From assembly GCA_049967655.1 (NCBI GenBank), contig JBMFSH010000009.1, positions 37,374-101,373 of the forward strand: a stretch of 64,000 bases of DNA, given 5' to 3'. The DNA comes from Acidobacteriota bacterium. Lineage in GTDB: Bacteria; Acidobacteriota; UBA4820; DSQY01. The first letter of the stretch is position 1; every line of letters starts with the position of its first letter. Position numbers and translations under genes: made by a program. Under the pieces are notes generated by a model. That model did no database searches and had not been told where the DNA came from. It worked only from the letters and a program-made list of their open reading frames with translations. Shown one piece after another: positions 3,903 to 38,335 of this stretch.

Positions 3903-4026
3903 GATCCTCCCCCTCACCTCATGAATGGACGGCCCTTATGCGGGGCCGAGTCCTGGCAGCATGGATCGAGACGGTGGAGGGTGGAGAAGGCCGCCGGCCG
4001 CGGCGCCGCGCCAGAGCTGCCCGGAG

Positions 4027-4485
4027 TCACTCCTTCTCCCCGTCGAAGTCCACGTCGTTCGGAATCTCGTTGGGATTCTTCTCCCCGGTGTAGGGGAAGT
4101 GGACCTTGAGGCGGCGGCCCACCTCCTCCACGGCCTCCACGAGCCCCTCGGTAAAATCTCCCTTTTTGAAGTTCTCCGAGAGCCTCGCCGCGACCGCCTC
4201 CCAGAACTCCTGCCCCACGTGCTGGTGGATGCCCTCATCGCCGATGATGCTGAAGCGTCGGCGGGACGGAACCACGAAGATCAGGACGCCGTTCCGGTGC
4301 TGAGTGCGATCCATGCCCATCCTGGTGAAGGCCTTCTGGGCGGTCCGGTGCACGCCGCCCCAGAAGAAATGGGCCACCGATACCCGGATCTCGCCCGAGG
4401 TCATGCGCTCGGCCTCCTCGATGGCGGCCTTCACCTTCTCCGCGTCCACGATGCGCCTCAGCCGGCGCCGGCTCATTCCGAACAT
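4027..4485 (-). CDS. TPM-domain (DUF477-like) protein
   Basis: AIEEAERMTSGEIRV, RNGVLIF, IIGDEGI, NPNEIPN. Third gene of a LemA-TPM-TPM cluster. Confidence 0.88.
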   Translation of the reverse strand: MFGMSRRRLRRIVDAEKVKAAIEEAERMTSGEIRVSVAHFFWGGVHRTAQKAFTRMGMDRTQHRNGVLIFVVPSRRRFSIIGDEGIHQHVGQEFWEAVAARLSENFKKGDFTEGLVEAVEEVGRRLKVHFPYTGEKNPNEIPNDVDFDGEKE

Positions 4486-4498
4486 GAAGCGCCTCCCG

Positions 4499-5266
4499 TC
4501 ACCACGAGCCCGAGGCCCCGCCGCCTCCCGAGCGCCCGCCGCCGCCGGAGAATCCTCCGCCGCCGCCCCCGAATCCACCTCCGCCGGCTCCCGAGAGGAT
4601 CTGGAAGAGGAGGAAGATGGCCAGGGTGGGATGCGTGACAAGCAGGAAAAGGAACCCGATGAGAAGGAGCCCGCCCAGGATCATCTGCCAGATGGTCAGG
4701 CCGGCGGGCTGCCCGCTCCCACGGACCGCCCTGGCCGGTTGCGAAACCGTGGCCGCCTGGATGGGCTCCTTCCACTGGGCGCCGCCCAGGGTTCCCAGGA
4801 TGCCCTCCACGCCCGCCGACACCGCGCCGTCGTAATCGTCGGCCTTGAGCTTGGGCAGCATGGCATCGTGGATGATGAGCCAGGCCGTGGCGTCGGGAAG
4901 CCGGCCCTCAAGGCCGTAGCCCACCTCGATGTGGAGCGATTTGTCCTGGGGGAAGACGAAGAGGGCGACGCCGTTGTCCTTGCCCTTCTGGCCGATGCGC
5001 CACGCGGCGAAGGCCTTGACGGCCCAGTCGTCGATGGGCACGCCGCCCGTGGTGGTCCCGATGTAGACGATGACCTGGTCGCCGGTCGCCTGCTGGAAGG
5101 CCTTGAGCCTTGCATTCAGCGCGTCGAGCGTGCCCGGGCTGAGCACTCCGGCCGCATCCGTAACCCACTGCGTGGGGGACGGCGGGATGGGAGTGCCCAC
5201 GGCGCCTGTCCAGACCGTGCAGGCCAGCAAGGCCGGCAACAGGAAGAAGAGTCGCTTCAATCGCAT
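4499..5266 (-). CDS. TPM-domain protein (YgcG-like) with TM segment and Gly-rich tail
   Basis: Signal peptide, VTDAAGVL, IGQKGKDNGVAL, IEVGYGLEG, C-terminal GGGGFSGGGGRSGGGGASGSW. Confidence 0.92.
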   Translation of the reverse strand: MRLKRLFFLLPALLACTVWTGAVGTPIPPSPTQWVTDAAGVLSPGTLDALNARLKAFQQATGDQVIVYIGTTTGGVPIDDWAVKAFAAWRIGQKGKDNGVALFVFPQDKSLHIEVGYGLEGRLPDATAWLIIHDAMLPKLKADDYDGAVSAGVEGILGTLGGAQWKEPIQAATVSQPARAVRGSGQPAGLTIWQMILGGLLLIGFLFLLVTHPTLAIFLLFQILSGAGGGGFGGGGGGFSGGGGRSGGGGASGSW

Positions 5267-5337
5267 GATGAAAGCCCCACTCGAAGGGGAGAGTTCAGGT
5301 CGCTTCCGATGCCACCTTCATCCGCCGCGGTCCTCGT

Positions 5338-5949
5338 TCAGAACTGGACCTTCGGAGCCGTCTCGGCACCGGCCTGGGCCTTGAAGTAGGGCTTGGGGTT
5401 GAACCGGCTCCCGAAGAAGCCGGCGATGATGTTGGTGGGGAAGCTCTGGCGCCTGGTGTTGAAGGCCTGGGCCGCCTCGTTGAAGCGCATGCGCTCCACG
5501 GCGATGCGGTTCTCGGTCCCCTCCAGCTGGGCCTGGAGCTCCTGGAAGTTTTGCGTCGCCTTCAGGTCGGGGTAGCGCTCCACCACGGCCATGAGGTGGG
5601 AAAGCGCGGAGGATAGGCCATCCTGGGCCTGCTGGAAGCGGGCGAAGGCCTGCGGATTGTTGGCTATGCCCTGCAGACCCTGCGCCGAGATCTGGCCCAC
5701 CTTGGAGCGGGCCTCGGCGACCTCGGTGAAGGTGCTCTTCTCAAAGGCCGCGGCGCCCTTGACCGTGGCCACCAGGTTGGGGATGAGGTCGGCCCTCCGC
5801 TGGTAGACGTTTTCCACCTGGGCCCACTGGGACTGGACCGCCTGGTCCAGGCTGACGAGCGAGTTGTAGGTGATGATGGCGTAAAGACCGACCGCGAGGC
5901 CGAACAGGATCAGAATGCCGATGAGTCCTAGGGCCACCCATTTGAACAT
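5338..5949 (-). CDS. lemA: LemA family protein
   Basis: N-terminal TM segment, YQRRADLIPNLV, ERYPDLKA, LEGTENRIAVER. AAGGAG RBS. Confidence 0.93.
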   Translation of the reverse strand: MFKWVALGLIGILILFGLAVGLYAIITYNSLVSLDQAVQSQWAQVENVYQRRADLIPNLVATVKGAAAFEKSTFTEVAEARSKVGQISAQGLQGIANNPQAFARFQQAQDGLSSALSHLMAVVERYPDLKATQNFQELQAQLEGTENRIAVERMRFNEAAQAFNTRRQSFPTNIIAGFFGSRFNPKPYFKAQAGAETAPKVQF

Positions 5950-6023
5950 GCGCGCATCTCCTTTGTATGCCCCGTGGCGGGGGCGCTCTTCTTGAAAGCA
6001 TAGCACAGAGGGGGGAGAGCGGA

Positions 6024-6086
6024 GTGGGAAGTGAGGCGTGAGGAGTAAGGAGTAAGGAGTAAAGAGTGAGGAGTAAGGTGTGAGAG
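6024..6086. repeat. Degenerate heptamer tandem array (consensus GTRAGGA) x9
   Basis: Units: gtgggaa gtgaggc gtgagga gtaagga gtaagga gtaaaga gtgagga gtaaggt gtgagag. Confidence 0.85.
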
Positions 6087-6097
6087 GCGGAGAGGGC

Positions 6098-6168
6098 TGT
6101 AGGAAACCTCTCCAGAGGCCGATGCGCCGTGCCGCCTCCCCGCTCGCGCTCTGGAGGGCGCTCCCCCA
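6098..6168. repeat. Inverted pair of GTAG-type REP sequences (REPIN-like)
   Basis: TGTAGGAAACCTCTCCAGAGGCCGAT faces an inverted copy CGCGCTCTGGAGGGCGCTCC. Better-conserved copies at 31058 and 54228. Confidence 0.65.
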
Positions 6169-6336
6169 TCGGAGGAAATTCCATCGCGCAATTTGGGCCT
6201 TTCGCTTCCCTTGCTTTCTTGGTGTCCTGGTGTCTAGGTGGTGAATCTGTTCTCTCCCTTTTCCGCCCTTCCCCCCGGATTTTGGTTATACTCTCCCTGC
6301 CGCCGTGGATTTGGCGTGCGGTTCGGGGGCAAAACC

Positions 6337-7974
6337 ATGGGCAGGCGTTTCACCGTCCTCTTCGCGGATGACGACCTCGGGGCCTACCGGCGCGAGCTGG
6401 AGCTGTATTTCGCCGTGGCCGAGCCCCAATGGGACCTCCGCTTCGCGACCAGCCTGAAGGAGGCCCTGGCCTACCTCTCCGCCGAGCGCGTGGACGCGGT
6501 GGTGCTGGACGTGGAGCTGACGCCGGGCGGCAAGGAGGGCATCCAGCTCCTGGTCCACCTGCGGCGCTACCAGGCCAATACCCCCATCATCGTGCTCACG
6601 GATGTCTCCGACGCCCGCGTGGTCCGGGATGCCTTCCTCTCCGAAACGCTGACGGAGGACTTCCGGCGCCAGGAGGTGGACCCCGACGGGTTCCTCTTCA
6701 AGGAGGAGATCCTCGCCAACCGGCGCTACGACATCCTTCACTGGGAGCTATCCAGGGGCCTCCACCATTACGGACGGGTGGCCAACCCAAGGGGTATCCT
6801 CGTGACGCACGGCACGGACACCATGGCCTGGGGGCTCTGCTACCTGCGGTACGCGCTGAAAAACCTCACGGCCAACGTGGCGGTGACGGGCTCCCAGGTC
6901 CCGCTGGAGGGCTACTACTCCATCTCCGACGCGCTCGGCAACCTCAAGACATCCATCTACCTTCTGACCCGCCTGCGCCCCGCACACCTCTTCGCGGTCT
7001 TCAACAACGGGCAGAGCATCTTCTCGGGGAGGCTCACCAAGTACCGGAAGTGGCACACCGACGCCTTCGACGGCCGGGTGGCCGCCAGCGCCGGCCCCGA
7101 GGGCGTCCACACGCTCCGCAAGGACTGGGTGATCATCCCCTACGAAGACCAGCGGCTGGAGGAGCTCCACCTGGTACGCACGGGCGGCACCATCGAATCC
7201 CAGCGGGACTCCCAGGCCGAGGGGGCCCTCAAGCCCACCGGCGACTTTGTCTGGAAGTACCTGAACGACGCCCTCTCCGAGTTTTTCGCCACGGCGGTGC
7301 GTCACGATCTGTTCGCGCTCGACTCCTCCAACATGTCTTTCGAGGAGTGGGCCGGCGTGGCCGGGGAGATCGAGCGGATCGGCGTGGCCACCGCCGACAC
7401 GCGATTCGACCTTTCGGTCAAGCCGGTCTACGCCAACCCCCTCTTCACCACCGAGGACTACCGCCGCCAGTTCTCGGCCTGCGGGCGCGGCGCCATCTTC
7501 GCGGGCTACGGGGGAGGCAACGCCAACACCTTTGAGCAGAGCTTCCGCTCCGTCCTTCCGGCCCTTCGGGAAGCCGTTAAGGCAGGCACCTTGGTGGGGA
7601 TCACCTCCCAGGTGCCCCTGGAACCCTACGACGCCGACTACGACGCCGGCCTGAACCTGCTGGAGGCGGGGGGGGTTCCGTGCGGCGACCTTCCCATGGC
7701 AGACGCTCAGGTCAAACTGAGCTACATCCTGGGCCATCCCGAGGAGCTTCGGACTGCGGCTGCGGAGTCGGGGCTGCCGGAGGCTCTTCTCGTGACCGCC
7801 GGGTTCCTCTCCGGCGTGAGCATGCGACGCGCCCTGGGCATGCAGACCTTCATCAAGCTCAAGGAGAGCCAGGGCATGCCGCTGCGCCTTCTTCCCGACG
7901 ACCCCTTCGTCTCCAAGCCCTTCGATGTGGGATTGCGGGCCGTGGTGGAGGCCTGCGCCACCTGCCCGCGCTGA
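6337..7974 (+). CDS. Response-regulator receiver domain fused to a segment-permuted L-asparaginase-like domain
   Basis: REC motifs FADDD, VLDVEL, IIVLT, FLFK. Asparaginase motifs HGTDT, TGSQVP, SDA..NL, TGGTI, DSSNM, GYGGGN, VKLSYILG. Confidence 0.88.
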   Translation: MGRRFTVLFADDDLGAYRRELELYFAVAEPQWDLRFATSLKEALAYLSAERVDAVVLDVELTPGGKEGIQLLVHLRRYQANTPIIVLTDVSDARVVRDAFLSETLTEDFRRQEVDPDGFLFKEEILANRRYDILHWELSRGLHHYGRVANPRGILVTHGTDTMAWGLCYLRYALKNLTANVAVTGSQVPLEGYYSISDALGNLKTSIYLLTRLRPAHLFAVFNNGQSIFSGRLTKYRKWHTDAFDGRVAASAGPEGVHTLRKDWVIIPYEDQRLEELHLVRTGGTIESQRDSQAEGALKPTGDFVWKYLNDALSEFFATAVRHDLFALDSSNMSFEEWAGVAGEIERIGVATADTRFDLSVKPVYANPLFTTEDYRRQFSACGRGAIFAGYGGGNANTFEQSFRSVLPALREAVKAGTLVGITSQVPLEPYDADYDAGLNLLEAGGVPCGDLPMADAQVKLSYILGHPEELRTAAAESGLPEALLVTAGFLSGVSMRRALGMQTFIKLKESQGMPLRLLPDDPFVSKPFDVGLRAVVEACATCPR

Positions 7975-7996
7975 ACACTGGCCCCGCGGGGCTCTT

Positions 7997-9013
7997 CTAT
8001 TCCCCCAGCTCTTCGCGCTCCTGGCTATTGAGCCGGGCGAGGGCGGAGCGGTAGGGCCAGTCCTCCAGGAATCCCTCCTCCTTCAGGATGCCGAGCTTCG
8101 AGCGGTGAAACTCCCAGTAGTCCTCCGTGCTCAGCGCTTCAAGGCGGTCCGCCAGGTGCACCAGGCGGGCGAACCACTGGAGGATGGCCTGGAGCTGCGC
8201 CCTCTGCCACCAGGGCATGAAGGGGGTGCGGATGGGGGTGCCCTGCACGGGCAGCTGGACGGCAATGGCCAGTCTGGCCGCGGCGAAGAGGATGAAGGCG
8301 AGGTTGGCTCCGGCCAGGGCCAGAAGCGCGTGCCAAAGGGTCGGGTCGCGCCAGGCCACCCCCTCGACCAGCAGGCCGAGAAGCAGGAGTCCCGAGGCGG
8401 CCGCTCCGCCGAGGCTCACCCACGGCACCCGCCACACGAGCCGTATGGGTGACTCCAGGGCCATGAGGGAGTAATACTCCCGGCGCACCTGTCCCGCGAT
8501 CCCCTTCCACTCCAGGACCAGCCGGTCGTAGACGAAGGAGCAGCGCCACCTCCTGGCCCGCCCGGTCCACTCGCAATGGCCTAGGTCGAGGGCTTCGAAG
8601 ACGCTCTGCAGCGGATAGCGCTTCTGCTCGACGCGCCGCTGCAGCTCGGCGATGAAGGCGCTGAAATCTCTCCCGGGCAGGCCGTGGAGCGAAAACAGCT
8701 CCTCTCCTTCGTATCCGTAGGCCCAGACCGAGAGGAGTGACGCGCGCCAGAGCAGGAGGAGCCAGGCGGCCGTTATGGCCCCTCCGGCGACCGCCATGGT
8801 GGCGTAGTCCACGGCTATCAGGAGGGCCGCCGCGGCGAACCCGGCGCTTACGGCCGACAGGATCAGGAAGGTCCGCAGCGGGAAGGTCTGGCGGTGGTAG
8901 GTATCCCAGATCTCGTCGTAGTACACCATATCGCTGCGGGTTTGCACACCGGAGGTGTACTCCTCCTCCACCACGCCCTCGGGCATGAGGGTGAAGCAGA
9001 CGCGCGTCCCCAT
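7997..9013 (-). CDS. Hypothetical membrane protein (two TM hairpins)
   Basis: Long ORF co-oriented downstream of lptE with two hydrophobic hairpins. Start codon uncertain. Confidence 0.7.
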   Translation of the reverse strand: MGTRVCFTLMPEGVVEEEYTSGVQTRSDMVYYDEIWDTYHRQTFPLRTFLILSAVSAGFAAAALLIAVDYATMAVAGGAITAAWLLLLWRASLLSVWAYGYEGEELFSLHGLPGRDFSAFIAELQRRVEQKRYPLQSVFEALDLGHCEWTGRARRWRCSFVYDRLVLEWKGIAGQVRREYYSLMALESPIRLVWRVPWVSLGGAAASGLLLLGLLVEGVAWRDPTLWHALLALAGANLAFILFAAARLAIAVQLPVQGTPIRTPFMPWWQRAQLQAILQWFARLVHLADRLEALSTEDYWEFHRSKLGILKEEGFLEDWPYRSALARLNSQEREELGE

Positions 9014-9044
9014 GTGGGGGCGCTCCTCGTGTCGGAACAACGGC

Positions 9045-9560
9045 TCAGGGGCCAGGGGTTCCCTCCAGAATGGAGGCCACGAGGGAGCGCGCGAAGTCCC
9101 TGGCCACCACGTCGTAGGCAACCACCTCCTGGTTGTAGTAGGAGGCTGGATTGGGAGAGGTCTCGTAGATCTCGCTAAAACGGTAACCCGAGGACTCGAA
9201 GAGGATTTTGCCCTCGGCGGTGACCAGGCGGACCCGGGCCGTCATGGTCACCTGGTAGCGGTTCGCCCGCCCGGCGGCGTCGTAAGAAAGTGGCGTCACG
9301 CCGTAACCGGTGATGGCGCCGGTCAGGATGGCGTCGGCACCGGTTTTGGTGGACTGGACACGGACCCTGGCGCGCTGGACCAGCTCCCGGGTGACGGCCT
9401 CGGTGACCCGTTGCTCCAACTGGACCACGGGCACCTGCCGCTCAAAGGGGAGCACCGCCACCGTCTTCACCGTGGGCGGGAGGGCTCCCGAGGCCCCCAG
9501 AAGTTGATAGCCGCAGCCGCCGAGCAGTCCCAGGAAGACGAGACCGAGTGTGAACCTCAT
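9045..9560 (-). CDS. lptE: LPS assembly lipoprotein LptE
   Basis: Lipobox LLGGC followed by GYQL, LptE-like pattern, canonical position downstream of leuS. Alternative start 9593. Confidence 0.82.
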   Translation of the reverse strand: MRFTLGLVFLGLLGGCGYQLLGASGALPPTVKTVAVLPFERQVPVVQLEQRVTEAVTRELVQRARVRVQSTKTGADAILTGAITGYGVTPLSYDAAGRANRYQVTMTARVRLVTAEGKILFESSGYRFSEIYETSPNPASYYNQEVVAYDVVARDFARSLVASILEGTPGP

Positions 9561-17315: not shown

Positions 17316-18959
17316 ATGGCGACGGAGACTACCCGCAGAGAGGAACTCTGGCGCCGCTATATCGAGGAGAGCCGCGCCAGGCTCGACGACGCCGAGAACT
17401 GGATCGCGGAGCTGCGGACCCGGCACGAGGACCCGGCCCCGCTGGAGAAGCTCCACGTGGTCTTTCACGATTTTGCGGGATCGGGAGCCCTCTACGCCGC
17501 CCCTCGCGTCAGCTCCCTCGGGGGCGACGGCGAGTACATGTGCTACAGCATCTCCATGGCAGGACGATCCCCTTCCGAGGATGAGCTCGAGGAGCTTTCC
17601 GGCTTGGTGCGGCGGCTCCGTGTCGAGTTTCAGGACCTAGTCGCGCGGACCGCTGGGTTGTCCTCCCATGTGCCTCACAGCCGCGTAACCCCGCTGATGC
17701 TCGCGGTGGCTCCGCCCTTCGAAGGCGAGGAACCCTTCCAGGCCTACTTCGCCAAGAGGGGCGTGAAGCTGGAGCTCACCCACTCCCTGGAGGAGGCCAG
17801 GCAGAAACTGCGGACCGAGCTCCCCGACATGGCCCTCGTGGCGGGACGCCTCCCCGATGGCAGCGGTTACGAGTTCGTGGGCCACCTGCGCGTGGCGGAG
17901 GGAGGTCGGACCATACCGGTCCTTCTGCTGGGCGACCAGGCGGGATTCACGGACAAACTGGAGGCCATCCGCTCCGGCGTGGACGCCTTCGTTCCCAGCC
18001 CTCCCGAGGCTCCCGAGGTTTACCGGAAGGTCAAGAGCCTGCTCGGGCGCAGGCGAGTGGCCCAGTCTCGAGTCCTCGTGGTGGAGGACGACCCAGCCCA
18101 GGCGCGGCTTATCGAGCAGTGCCTGCACAGCGCCGGCTATTCGGTCCACGTCCTGGCGGATCCCAAACAGTTCGACCGGGTGCTGCGCACCGCGCACCCC
18201 CACCTGATCCTCATGGACGTGCTGCTCCCCGGCGTCAGCGGCTACGACCTGGTGCGGTACCTCCGGCAGGAGGAGGGCTTCACGCTCGTGCCCGTAATCT
18301 TCCTAACCACGGAGGGCCAACGAAAGGCGCAGATCCTCGGCTCCGAGGCGGGCGGCGACGACTACCTGGTGAAACCCGTCTCCCCGGAGGATCTCCTGGT
18401 CGCCATCCGCTCGCGGCTGATCCGCTATCGGAGCCTGCAGGAGATAATGGAGCGGGACGAGCTCACCGCGCTCCTCGCGCCAGGGCCGTTCCTCCAGCAG
18501 GCGAGGCTCTGCCTCAACCGGTACGCGAGGCGACAGGTACCCTACGCCTTGGTGCTGATGCAGGTGGACGGCATGGTCGGGCACGTGACGAACTTCGGCC
18601 CCTCGGCGCGGGACCACCTGCTGCAAACCCTCTCCCGCTTCCTCCAGCAAAGACTGAGGCAGACCGACATTCTGGGGCGCCATGGCGCCGACGTGGTGGG
18701 TGCCGTGCTCGAACACCTCTCGGACGATGACGCCGTGCGGCTCATGCGACGAATCCAGAAGGAGTTCGAGGCCAGGGAGACGCCGGTTGGCCTGGGGCAC
18801 ACGGTGCGGACCTCTTTCTGCGCGGGCATCGCCATGGTGGCCCCCAGCTACAAGACCCTGAAGGAGTGGCTGGGCGCGGCCACGGACGCCCTCACCCAGG
18901 CCAGGAGCTACGGCCCCGGCCGCACCTTCGTGGCTGGCCGCTCCATCCCCGAGGAGTAG
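17316..18959 (+). CDS. Hpt-REC-REC-degenerate GGDEF signalling protein
   Basis: FHDFAGSG (Hpt), first REC lacks the acceptor Asp, second REC intact (VEDD, LMDVLLP), GGDEF-fold tail with RQTD..GRHGADV. Confidence 0.88.
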   Translation: MATETTRREELWRRYIEESRARLDDAENWIAELRTRHEDPAPLEKLHVVFHDFAGSGALYAAPRVSSLGGDGEYMCYSISMAGRSPSEDELEELSGLVRRLRVEFQDLVARTAGLSSHVPHSRVTPLMLAVAPPFEGEEPFQAYFAKRGVKLELTHSLEEARQKLRTELPDMALVAGRLPDGSGYEFVGHLRVAEGGRTIPVLLLGDQAGFTDKLEAIRSGVDAFVPSPPEAPEVYRKVKSLLGRRRVAQSRVLVVEDDPAQARLIEQCLHSAGYSVHVLADPKQFDRVLRTAHPHLILMDVLLPGVSGYDLVRYLRQEEGFTLVPVIFLTTEGQRKAQILGSEAGGDDYLVKPVSPEDLLVAIRSRLIRYRSLQEIMERDELTALLAPGPFLQQARLCLNRYARRQVPYALVLMQVDGMVGHVTNFGPSARDHLLQTLSRFLQQRLRQTDILGRHGADVVGAVLEHLSDDDAVRLMRRIQKEFEARETPVGLGHTVRTSFCAGIAMVAPSYKTLKEWLGAATDALTQARSYGPGRTFVAGRSIPEE

Positions 18960-31998: not shown

Positions 31999-32760
31999 AT
32001 GCTCGTCCAGTGTCCCAACTGTCTCAAGCGGTACCGTCTCCAGCAGACCCAGGCGAGGCTCCTGAGGGTCCGGTGCAGAGGGTGCGGCAGCGAGTTTCTG
32101 GTCTCCCCCACGACCGACCAACGCCACGAAATCTTGGGCCGCGACGAGCGGACGACGGCCGTGGTGGCCGACATCCAGCGCGACTTCCGAAACCTGGTCA
32201 TCAACCTCCTGGACGATCAGGGATTCCACCTCTTCATCGTGGAGGAGGGGGATCGAGCACTGGCGACGGTGATAGAACAGAAGCCCCGCCTCCTCCTGGT
32301 CAATCCTTACCTGCCAGGCCTCTTGGGCGTGGACCTCATCGCACGAATCAGGGCCGAGGCCGCCGAGCCTCCGATCATCATCCTGATGGGCGCAATCCAC
32401 AACTCCAGGAGGTACCATCGCAGGCCCCAATCCCTGTACGGGGCCGATGATTACCTGGACGAGGGCAGCAGCGAGGCCGTGATCCTTCGCAAGCTCGCCT
32501 TTCACCTGGAGATCGCCCTGGCGGGGAACCATCTGAGCGAGGGCGTGGACGCGGAGTCCCTGCGGCTGGCGCGCAGCGTCTTCGCGGACCTCCTAGTCTA
32601 CGATCCGGACCGGATGGTGCAGGTTCACGACGTACCGGATTTTTTCCGCCTCTTCGCCGATGAGGCGGCCGAGGGCCGCCGCTATTTGGAGCACCGCCGG
32701 CCCGGAGCCGGCGAGTATCTCAGCCGAGTCGTGCATCACTACCTCCGAAAGAGGGAGTAG
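31999..32760 (+). CDS. Zinc-ribbon (MJ0042-finger-like) plus pseudo-receiver protein
   Basis: CPNC..CRGC, REC-like region with Asn in place of the phospho-Asp (LLLVNPYLP), YGADDYL. Confidence 0.78.
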   Translation: MLVQCPNCLKRYRLQQTQARLLRVRCRGCGSEFLVSPTTDQRHEILGRDERTTAVVADIQRDFRNLVINLLDDQGFHLFIVEEGDRALATVIEQKPRLLLVNPYLPGLLGVDLIARIRAEAAEPPIIILMGAIHNSRRYHRRPQSLYGADDYLDEGSSEAVILRKLAFHLEIALAGNHLSEGVDAESLRLARSVFADLLVYDPDRMVQVHDVPDFFRLFADEAAEGRRYLEHRRPGAGEYLSRVVHHYLRKRE

Positions 32761-35933: not shown

Positions 35934-36997
35934 GAAAGATCCGGGTCCTCGTGGTGGACGACTCCTCCTTCAACCGCAAGATCATCTCCGAAATCCTGGA
36001 ATCCTCCGACAAGATCGAGGTGGTGGGCAAGGCCTTCGACGGCGAGGACGCCATCTCGAAAATCCTGAAGTTCCAGCCGGAGGCCATCACCCTCGACCTC
36101 GAGATGCCTCACATGGACGGCTTCGCCGTGCTCCGGTGGGTGATGGTCAATCACCCCGTCCCCGTCATCGTGGTGTCGGCCAGGGAGTCGGACCGGTCCG
36201 TCTTCAAAGCCCTCGACCTGGGCGCCGTGGACTTCGTGGTCAAGCCTTCGCGCCACGCTTCTCCGCAGCTGAAGGAGATCGACCGGGAACTGCTGTCCAA
36301 GATCCTCTCCATCCCCTCTCTCCAGTTCGACCTAGTCCGGCAACGGCTGGCCCAGACGGCGGCGCCGCCGGCCCCCGTGGCCCTCCCCGCGGCGCAGGGG
36401 GGCCGGACGGCGGAGGTGGTGGCCATCGCCGCCTCCACGGGAGGCCCTCCGGCCATCCAGCAGATCCTCCAGGGGCTGCACCCGGCGCTGGCTTCGCCGA
36501 TCTTAGTGTGCCAGCACATGCCCCCCATCTTCACCCGGCTCTTCGCCGAGCGCCTGGGCGCGCTCACGGGAAGGGCCGTGAAGGAGGCCGAGGACGGCGA
36601 GGCCTTGCGGCCCGCCCACGTCTACATCGCCCCGGGCGGCAAACAGCTCCGCCTGAGGGTGAAGGAGGGCGTCAAGCGCCTGTCGGTGGAGGAGCGGAAG
36701 CCGGAGGACCGGTTCGCCCCCTGCGCCAACCACCTCCTGACCAGCGTTGCCGAAGCCTGCGGCAAGCACTGCCTGGTGGCCGTCTTGACCGGCATGGGCG
36801 ACGACGGCAAGGAGGGCAGCCTGGCCGTCCACGCCGCAGGCGGTACGGTGGTCGCCGAATCGGAGGCCTCGGCGGTGATCTTCGGCATGCCGAGGGAGGT
36901 CATCAAGGCGGGAGCGGCGGACCACGTCACCGACATCCCCGGGGTAGTGGGTCTGATCAATCGGTACGCGCTCATGCGTCCCGGGGCTGGGCCCTAG
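35930..36997 (+). CDS. cheB: Protein-glutamate methylesterase CheB (REC + esterase)
   Basis: VVDDS, TLDLEMP, ASTGGP, QHMP, LTGMGDDG. ATGA overlap with cheR. Confidence 0.97.
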   Translation: MRKIRVLVVDDSSFNRKIISEILESSDKIEVVGKAFDGEDAISKILKFQPEAITLDLEMPHMDGFAVLRWVMVNHPVPVIVVSARESDRSVFKALDLGAVDFVVKPSRHASPQLKEIDRELLSKILSIPSLQFDLVRQRLAQTAAPPAPVALPAAQGGRTAEVVAIAASTGGPPAIQQILQGLHPALASPILVCQHMPPIFTRLFAERLGALTGRAVKEAEDGEALRPAHVYIAPGGKQLRLRVKEGVKRLSVEERKPEDRFAPCANHLLTSVAEACGKHCLVAVLTGMGDDGKEGSLAVHAAGGTVVAESEASAVIFGMPREVIKAGAADHVTDIPGVVGLINRYALMRPGAGP

Positions 36998-37954: not shown

Positions 37955-38335
37955 ATGGATGGGCTGCGCTTTCTGGTGGTCGAGGATTCCCCCACGATGC
38001 GGCAGTTGATCTCCTTCTCTCTGAAGCGTTTTAAGGGCTGCAAGATCGTCGAGGCGGTGGACGGCGTGGACGCCCTCAAGAAGCTCCAGACCGAGGAGGT
38101 GGACATGGTCCTCACGGACATCAACATGCCCGTGATGGACGGCCTCAAGCTCGTCTCCCTGGTCCGCCAGAACGTCAAGACCAAGGACCTGCCCATCGTC
38201 ATCATCACCACCGAGGGGGCCCAGGAGGACCGCGACCGGGGCCTCGCCCTGGGCGCCAACGCTTATATCAGCAAGCCCATCCAGTCTTCCCATCTCCTGA
38301 AGGTGATCGGGGAGATCCTGGAAAAGAACGGCTGA
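37955..38335 (+). CDS. cheY: CheY-like single-domain response regulator
   Basis: VVEDS, LTDINMPVMDG, IITTE, YISKP. Confidence 0.9.
   Translation: MDGLRFLVVEDSPTMRQLISFSLKRFKGCKIVEAVDGVDALKKLQTEEVDMVLTDINMPVMDGLKLVSLVRQNVKTKDLPIVIITTEGAQEDRDRGLALGANAYISKPIQSSHLLKVIGEILEKNG

Follow-up and report, generated by a model that had tools for sequence, protein, structure and literature searches.

The window analysed here is a stretch of 64,000 nucleotides from the genome of an Acidobacteriota bacterium (assembly GCA_049967655.1, contig JBMFSH010000009.1, positions 37,374 to 101,373). Near its beginning it carries a gene whose product, P0001, joins a receiver (REC) domain to an asparaginase-like enzyme in which the two halves of the N-terminal domain (N-domain) occur in swapped order. 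The gene lies within a longer open reading frame (ORF), and its start was placed at the ATG at 6337 because M1 and the N-terminal motif MxRxFxIL are conserved in an alignment of P0001 with 84 homologues (85 rows). The features of the gene are given below with window coordinates and with residue numbers of P0001.

6238..7974, + strand: ORF in the ORF list of the 64-kb window
6337..7974, + strand: whole gene P0001, 545 codons plus stop, 545-aa product
6337..6780, + strand: REC domain, residues 1-148 (Pfam PF00072; fold match to the PmrA receiver 9of8)
6367-6375, + strand: REC acidic pocket D11-D13 (alignment residue table)
6508-6510, + strand: REC acceptor D58 (alignment residue table)
6598-6600, + strand: REC T88 (alignment residue table)
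6700-6702, + strand: REC K122 (alignment residue table)
6781..7152, + strand: second half of the asparaginase N-domain, placed first, residues 149-272 (PF00710 profile, GatD alignment)
6808-6822, + strand: HGTDT, residues 158-162, first-placed half
6886-6897, + strand: TGSQ, first-placed half
6925-6930, + strand: SD, first-placed half
7039-7041, + strand: K235, first-placed half
7153..7386, + strand: first half of the asparaginase N-domain, placed second, residues 273-350 (PF00710 profile, GatD alignment)
7180-7194, + strand: nucleophile motif TGGTI, residues 282-286, second-placed half
Residues 284-303: lid loop, second-placed half
7321-7329, + strand: DSS, second-placed half (DSSNM, residues 329-333, at 7321-7335)
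7387..7761, + strand: asparaginase C-terminal domain (C-domain), residues 351-475 (PF17763; aligns to GatD and to the P. furiosus asparaginase)
Residues 390-395 and 424-432: C-domain motifs GYGGGN and SQVPLEPYD
7762..7971, + strand: helical C-terminal extension, residues 476-545, family-specific (model helices and conserved alignment columns)

The motifs YDAG and VKLSYILG are likewise found in the translation. The preliminary description of this DNA, which was made from the letters alone, had located HGTDT, TGGTI and DSSNM at coordinates that prove exact on the translation, and had called the receiver intact and the recognisable catalytic motifs retained. Both judgements are borne out, the former by the presence of D11/D12/D13, D58, T88 and K122 and by a receiver fold with a Z score of 17.4, and the latter by Pfam, by alignment to Protein Data Bank (PDB) entries and by conservation across the 85 rows.

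The order of the enzyme segments was established by matching P0001 to profiles and structures of canonical asparaginases. Pfam searches identified Response_reg at residues 9-99 (E 1.9e-9, 38.1 bits, cut-off 30.2), the Asparaginase N-domain PF00710 in two stretches (E 9.6e-21, 74.6 bits, cut-off 22.5), and Asparaginase_C PF17763 at residues 364-471 (E 1.2e-12, 48.2 bits, cut-off 34.6). The best PF00710 stretch, residues 152-246, corresponds to positions 78-171 of the 193-position profile. When the same profile is compared with the genome DNA, positions 78-171 fall at 6790-7074 of the window, and positions 2-71 are found downstream of them, at 7165-7377 (23.8 bits, cut-off 22.5). The same swapped order is seen in the phmmer alignment with GatD (1zq1), where query residues 151-246 match chain positions 169-264, query residues 274-347 match positions 91-163, and query residues 404-472 match positions 344-413; in addition, the C-domain aligns to residues 191-310 of the P. 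furiosus asparaginase. As a control, nine of ten longer canonical asparaginases match PF00710 in a single stretch from profile positions 1-2 to 187-191, the exception being P0188, which matches positions 46-190 only. Thus, the motif order in P0001 is HGTDT - K - TGGT - DSS and the canonical order TGGT - DSS - HGTDT - K does not occur in it; the split, out-of-order N-domain match expected in the preliminary description is found at both the protein and the DNA level, and the Pfam and PDB alignments agree on the permuted placement of the halves. A further part of that description, according to which the receiver had taken the place of the moved segment, does not hold. Of the 85 aligned family members, 21 lack a receiver, their chains starting right at the HGTDT strand; the receiver is therefore not a substitute for the moved segment. 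Judged from these alignments, the N-domain has been circularly permuted, independently of the receiver, and the layout is best described as a B half (149-272), an A half (273-350), a C-domain (351-475) and a helical tail (476-545).

The permuted gene is not confined to one assembly. A word-index search identified 111 homologues, which comprise proteins of about 540 aa with a receiver, stand-alone proteins of about 390-420 aa, and proteins of about 800 aa from Asgard archaea; 27 of them, fragments and 800-aa forms, were left out of the alignment. The permuted order is common to all 85 aligned rows. A 2,978-base contig from an unrelated public sequencing run is colinear with the window over 6361-8300, with 100 letters differing, and each domain junction is bridged by further contigs from unrelated runs; a misassembly, for which read mapping had been proposed as the check, is thereby excluded. 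The 19 runs returned in the search of public data include no RNA run that holds the gene. Within the taxonomic family of the source genome, 20 of the 24 genomes sampled have an intact orthologue, as do all four from the sister family, so that the gene is found in 24 of the 28 genomes sampled across the order, the four without it being 94, 86, 64 and 67% complete. Outside these two families, 32 genomes of the same phylum gave no orthologue. Some contig mappings contain joints within the gene (for example, from 6833 to 7165) that were considered as gene variants and rejected: they involve contigs of low identity, have sides of 27-49 letters and cover conserved motifs only, and they were read as homologues of other organisms.

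To delimit the family, 1.84 billion representatives were searched with a profile built from 17 stand-alone members. At E <= 1e-30 there were 80 proteins, of which the first 61 (E <= 4e-39) match mostly as one long stretch; the following row, P0155, is a canonical asparaginase, and canonical enzymes of about 330 aa further down match in three stretches. In a phylogenetic tree, 48 permuted and 74 canonical rows are split on one branch with a support of 100, the rows being labelled by motif order alone after removal of 17 rows of unclear order and of rows shorter than 300 aa; part of this split may stem from the misaligned half. The result fits a permutation that arose only once. The permuted module was found in at least nine loci of species-representative genomes, distributed among Acidobacteriota, Aminicenantes, WOR-3, Rikenellaceae, Bacteroidaceae, Delongbacteria and Heimdallarchaeota. 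Besides the forms described above, the family includes proteins with a receiver and extra N-terminal sequence, proteins with N-terminal regions of 150-390 aa, and proteins with long C-terminal extensions. The Asgard proteins of about 800 aa (P0077, P0101 and P0110) have 'CLGHQ'-like and 'FHPE' motifs in their C-terminal parts, which we take to be the nucleophile elbow and the His-Glu of class I glutamine amidotransferases; a precomputed PF00117 match is available for P0101 only among the three. Going by these motifs, a single Asgard chain may hold two ammonia-releasing domains. The Heimdallarchaeota copy (locus L013, 7998-9166 and 9527-10396) is interrupted by a frame change inside TGGTI that leaves ORFs of 142 and 248 aa, and the amidotransferase-like part is encoded apart from them, in an ORF of its own; this broken copy could be either a pseudogene or an assembly error.

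The fold of P0001 was predicted by AlphaFold2 from the 85-row alignment with a mean predicted local distance difference test (pLDDT) of 92.7 and a predicted template modelling (pTM) score of 0.92, and the order of secondary-structure elements in the model is that expected for re-threaded elements of a canonical N-domain. The top Foldseek matches are asparaginases and GatD (E ~1e-13, target template modelling score ~0.6). VIA-align places GatD 1zq1 at Z 21.2 with a root-mean-square deviation (rmsd) of 3.3 A over 247 residues, followed by about 40 further asparaginase entries at Z 17-21, and superposes model residues 1-148 on the PmrA receiver 9of8 (Z 17.4, rmsd 2.0, 125 residues). Both aligners are sequential, so that model residues 148-498 are aligned to chain positions ~72-328 with the moved half skipped, and the placement of residues 273-350 is thus not shown by them. 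The predicted catalytic residues from both halves are nearly invariant in the 85 rows: THGTDT, Q187, D198 and S330 are present in all of them, and K235, T282 and D329 in 84 each. The C-terminal extension, which has no Pfam match over residues 476-545, contains helices at 482-491, 499-511 and 529-541 in the model and nearly invariant alignment columns, with F490, G493, D522 and F529 conserved. In comparison with three same-genus orthologues, which are 95-96% identical and not independent of each other, the ratio of nonsynonymous to synonymous substitution rates (dN/dS) is 0.09-0.12 in the enzyme part and 0.25-0.29 in the receiver; the gene is therefore under purifying selection.

A homodimer of residues 148-545 is predicted with an interaction prediction score from aligned errors (ipSAE) of 0.86 in three of three runs, against 0.00 for the best control; 20 of 30 solved same-chain pairs reach the mark applied, as does one of 23 single chains. 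At least 96% of the contacts are common to the runs, and the partner pLDDT is at least 88. The predicted interface involves residues 160-162 and 235-240 of the first-placed half, residues 285, 288, 298-299 and 328-335 of the second-placed half, and, on the side of the partner C-domain, residues 359-370, 390-399 and 424-432; a single partner residue, 368, contacts both 162 and 334. The model gives indirect support to a structure in which the two halves rebuild one pocket at an intimate dimer interface, as in known asparaginases.

Two known groups of enzymes resemble P0001 most closely. The type I asparaginases from T. kodakarensis (5ot0), P. furiosus (4q0m), P. horikoshii (1wls), E. coli (AnsA, 2p2d/2him) and guinea pig (4r8k/5dnc) have the same two-domain fold (Z 20-21, rmsd 3.3-3.5, ~245 residues aligned to the P0001 model) and the same TGGT, DSS, HGTDT and K motifs, and they form an intimate dimer with catalytic loops facing the partner C-domain, as is predicted for P0001; however, P0001 differs from them in the swapped halves of its N-domain, in its N-terminal receiver and in its C-terminal helical extension of ~70 residues. 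According to the titles of PDB entries 2p2d and 2him, E. coli AnsA is allosterically controlled. GatD (1zq1, 2d6f) provides the best PDB sequence match (1zq1, E 9.9e-17), a Z score of 21.2 and a similar lid sequence, whereas P0001 has the permuted order and no Pfam match to the GatD_N domain (PF18195), and no GatE/GatB was found in the genome. The search of this 99.3% complete genome for GatB/GatE (PF02934, TIGR00134) gave no match, while 12 of 14 control genomes were positive; the organism probably charges its Asn and Gln tRNAs directly. A search of the genome DNA with the PF00710 profile found no other class-1 asparaginase, there is no PF06089-type asparaginase in the genome, and one PF01112 gene of the N-terminal nucleophile (Ntn) type is present.

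Enzymatic response regulators are known in several forms: CheB combines a receiver with a methylesterase/glutamine deamidase, and receivers are also attached to GGDEF, HD-GYP and PorX-type outputs. CheB removes amide groups and is restrained by its receiver until phosphorylated. P0001 and CheB-like regulators share an N-terminal receiver that is fused directly to a hydrolytic enzyme; however, the output fold of the latter is unrelated to asparaginase, and the P0001 gene has no chemotaxis genes or kinase beside it. The PorX and FixJ receivers are weak NCBIfam matches of P0001. The preliminary description had stated that no two-component output of this kind was known. This stands for the literature searched, within whose coverage (subscription journals lie outside it) we found no permuted class-1 asparaginase or receiver-asparaginase fusion, and what was retrieved there on circular permutation of asparaginases concerned unrelated Ntn-type enzymes or was off topic. 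In sequence databases, on the other hand, the fusion already exists under nonspecific, machine-assigned names, for example 'L-asparaginase/Glu-tRNA(Gln) amidotransferase subunit D/CheY-like chemotaxis protein'. The window contributes a copy whose receiver looks live, a tally of how often receivers decayed, the evidence on the dimer interface and the absence of GatB/GatE from the genome.

The state of the receiver varies widely within the family. The receiver-bearing rows, 64 in number, lie on one side of a branch with a support of 99, and all of them retain the ~150-residue domain. The full acceptor set is kept in 19 rows, D and K without T/S in three, and D58 with other acceptor residues missing in 14, while D58 itself is gone in 28. 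The intact state is found in 7 of 7 rows of the basal group and in 7 of 8 rows of the subclade that contains the window, and all three same-genus orthologues keep the D, D, T and K of the receiver. The P0001 receiver is divergent, with 41.4 bits and rank 54 among the 62 REC matches of its genome. The genome also has 31 HisKA matches, so unpaired kinases could exist; none of the 31 lies on the contig of the window, and no kinase was found among the 19 neighbouring ORFs scanned, in agreement with the earlier remark that no cognate kinase is adjacent. Four more receiver proteins are encoded on the same contig 10-30 kb downstream (~17739-18410, 32164-32460, 35945-36253 and 37973-38308), including a 570-aa ORF with two REC matches and a 139-aa single-domain receiver.

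P0001 is a real, conserved and probably active enzyme of unusual topology. The best joint explanation, to which we assign a probability of roughly 0.6, is a permuted, cytoplasmic, dimeric, threonine-nucleophile amidohydrolase of the class-1 asparaginase superfamily with a receiver tuned by phosphorylation. Its closest kin would be the archaeal and cytosolic type I enzymes together with GatD. In the proposed topology the chain would enter the N-domain at the strand leading to HGTDT (T160-D161, with K235), complete the rest of that domain, and then form strand 1 with the nucleophile T282 (TGGTI), the lid loop and DSS (S330) before passing on into the C-domain; the two halves would presumably rebuild the active site at the dimer interface, facing the C-domain of the partner. 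The absence of GatD_N, the low GatD scores and the lack of GatE/GatB favour a cytoplasmic L-asparaginase/glutaminase, and the likeliest reaction would be the conversion of L-Asn and/or L-Gln to Asp/Glu with release of ammonia. The receiver retains all the residues that phosphotransfer requires; an unlinked histidine kinase may phosphorylate D58, and phosphorylation would then tune the activity allosterically or via the oligomer state, the signal presumably passing through the ~7-residue link from helix 5 of the receiver to the HGTDT strand. Such control of the enzyme is plausible by analogy: a cytosolic asparaginase would need restraint, the receiver could supply that control, and CheB serves as the working analogy.

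L-asparaginases are heavily studied drug and food enzymes. A natural permutation shows that the fold accepts new chain ends next to the active site, which is of interest to protein engineering, and the family supplies natural versions with live and dead receivers for comparison. If confirmed, an asparaginase controlled by a receiver would bring a metabolic amidase into the small group of enzymatic two-component outputs. More tentatively, and with clearly less confidence than the explanation above, we propose that these proteins may represent a new class of enzymatic response regulators, in which phosphorylation would directly switch a Thr-nucleophile asparaginase/glutaminase on or off and in which the new N-terminus is fused to regulatory or partner domains. 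In this scenario, an ancient permutation would have given rise to a new N-terminus at the HGTDT strand, and domains would then have been fused there, a receiver in bacteria and other extensions elsewhere; an environmental signal would be wired straight to the breakdown of Asn/Gln and the release of ammonia, without a transcription step.

Several observations weigh against the amidohydrolase with a phosphorylation-tuned receiver. In 42 of the 64 receiver-bearing relatives the receiver is degenerate and the enzyme is still kept, so in many lineages the enzyme module evidently has no need of a live receiver; at least nine changes between the intact and the degenerate state are counted on a FastTree tree of the enzyme part only, with alignment error within the receiver region possible. 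The NCBIfam model for type I asparaginases, TIGR00519, scores 89.2 against a cut-off of 260.5 and matches in three stretches, and the GatD models reach 76.5 against 310 (NF003217) and 70.9 against 324 (TIGR02153). At lid position 299, the Tyr of the GatD 'GAVYP' is replaced by Lys in P0001 and the position is variable in the family. The dimer prediction may have succeeded because the model remembers asparaginase dimers of solved structure. Finally, no shared partner gene was found across 37 neighbouring ORFs in eight related loci.

The alternative that best survives these data retains the enzyme as described and regards the receiver as a structural or oligomerisation pseudo-receiver, the activity being constitutive or controlled by substrate. 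The 28 relatives without D58 and the 14 more without other acceptor residues speak for this alternative, as does repeated decay with at least nine changes of state in a domain of ~150 residues that is nevertheless kept in all 64 rows; the divergence of the P0001 receiver (41.4 bits, 54th of 62) and the lack of a kinase on the contig point the same way. Yet the complete acceptor set in 7 of 8 members of the window's subclade and in 7 of 7 of the basal clade, the D, D, T and K kept by the three same-genus orthologues, and a receiver dN/dS of 0.25-0.29 argue against such a role in P0001, and we regard the pseudo-receiver as unlikely here, if still a serious contender. Much less probable is a GatD-like ammonia donor that hydrolyses Gln/Asn only in a complex and passes the ammonia to a partner amidotransferase. 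This idea draws on GatD 1zq1 as the best PDB match, on a lid resembling the G-x-hydrophobic-x-P of GatD and on the second amidotransferase-like domain of the Asgard relatives (PF00117 on P0101), but it conflicts with the missing GatD_N, with the GatD model score of 76.5 against 310, with the genome having no GatE/GatB match and with the lack of a conserved neighbour in the eight loci. We hold it just as improbable that the fold was kept for another job, as an amidase or esterase acting on a peptide- or protein-bound amide or a lipid, or as a non-catalytic binding protein. Scores under the family cut-offs, the variable lid position, the conserved helical extension without a known family and the 60-kDa lysophospholipase relative 9s7z among the PDB matches would all fit such a job; however, the near-invariant T, S, T-D and K argue for catalysis, and the DSSNM and HGTDT contexts are near those of type I asparaginases that act on free amino acids. 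The remaining reading, an assembly or annotation artefact, to which a draft genome of 147 contigs might lend some colour, is refuted by the 111 homologues with the permuted order in all 85 aligned rows, by the colinear independent contigs and by orthologues with unbroken frames in 24 of the 28 genomes sampled across the order.

Among the 19 neighbouring ORFs scanned are those for an amino-acid permease, two TPM proteins, LemA, LptE and LeuRS. An aminoacyl-tRNA synthetase is encoded nearby in the window and in L005 (LeuRS) as well as in L011 (Trp/Tyr-type), cases too few to be meaningful. A convergent gene on the - strand (7997-9121), which lies 22 bases from the stop codon of the P0001 gene, encodes a 374-aa predicted protein with no Pfam family, and the 95%-identical relative L005 has an ORF of 347 aa in the corresponding place. 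In another acidobacterial relative, L006, a 959-aa Cas6/reverse-transcriptase/Cas1 fusion and Cas2 (3955-7112) are encoded just upstream of the orthologue. In the intergenic region upstream of the gene, at 6021-6160, seven copies of AGTAAGG form an array (6030-6078), and a palindromic segment rich in GC comes next; many short metagenome contigs map to 6077-6153, their depths adding up to 2,684 in one run (X5), which suggests that the element is a dispersed intergenic repeat.

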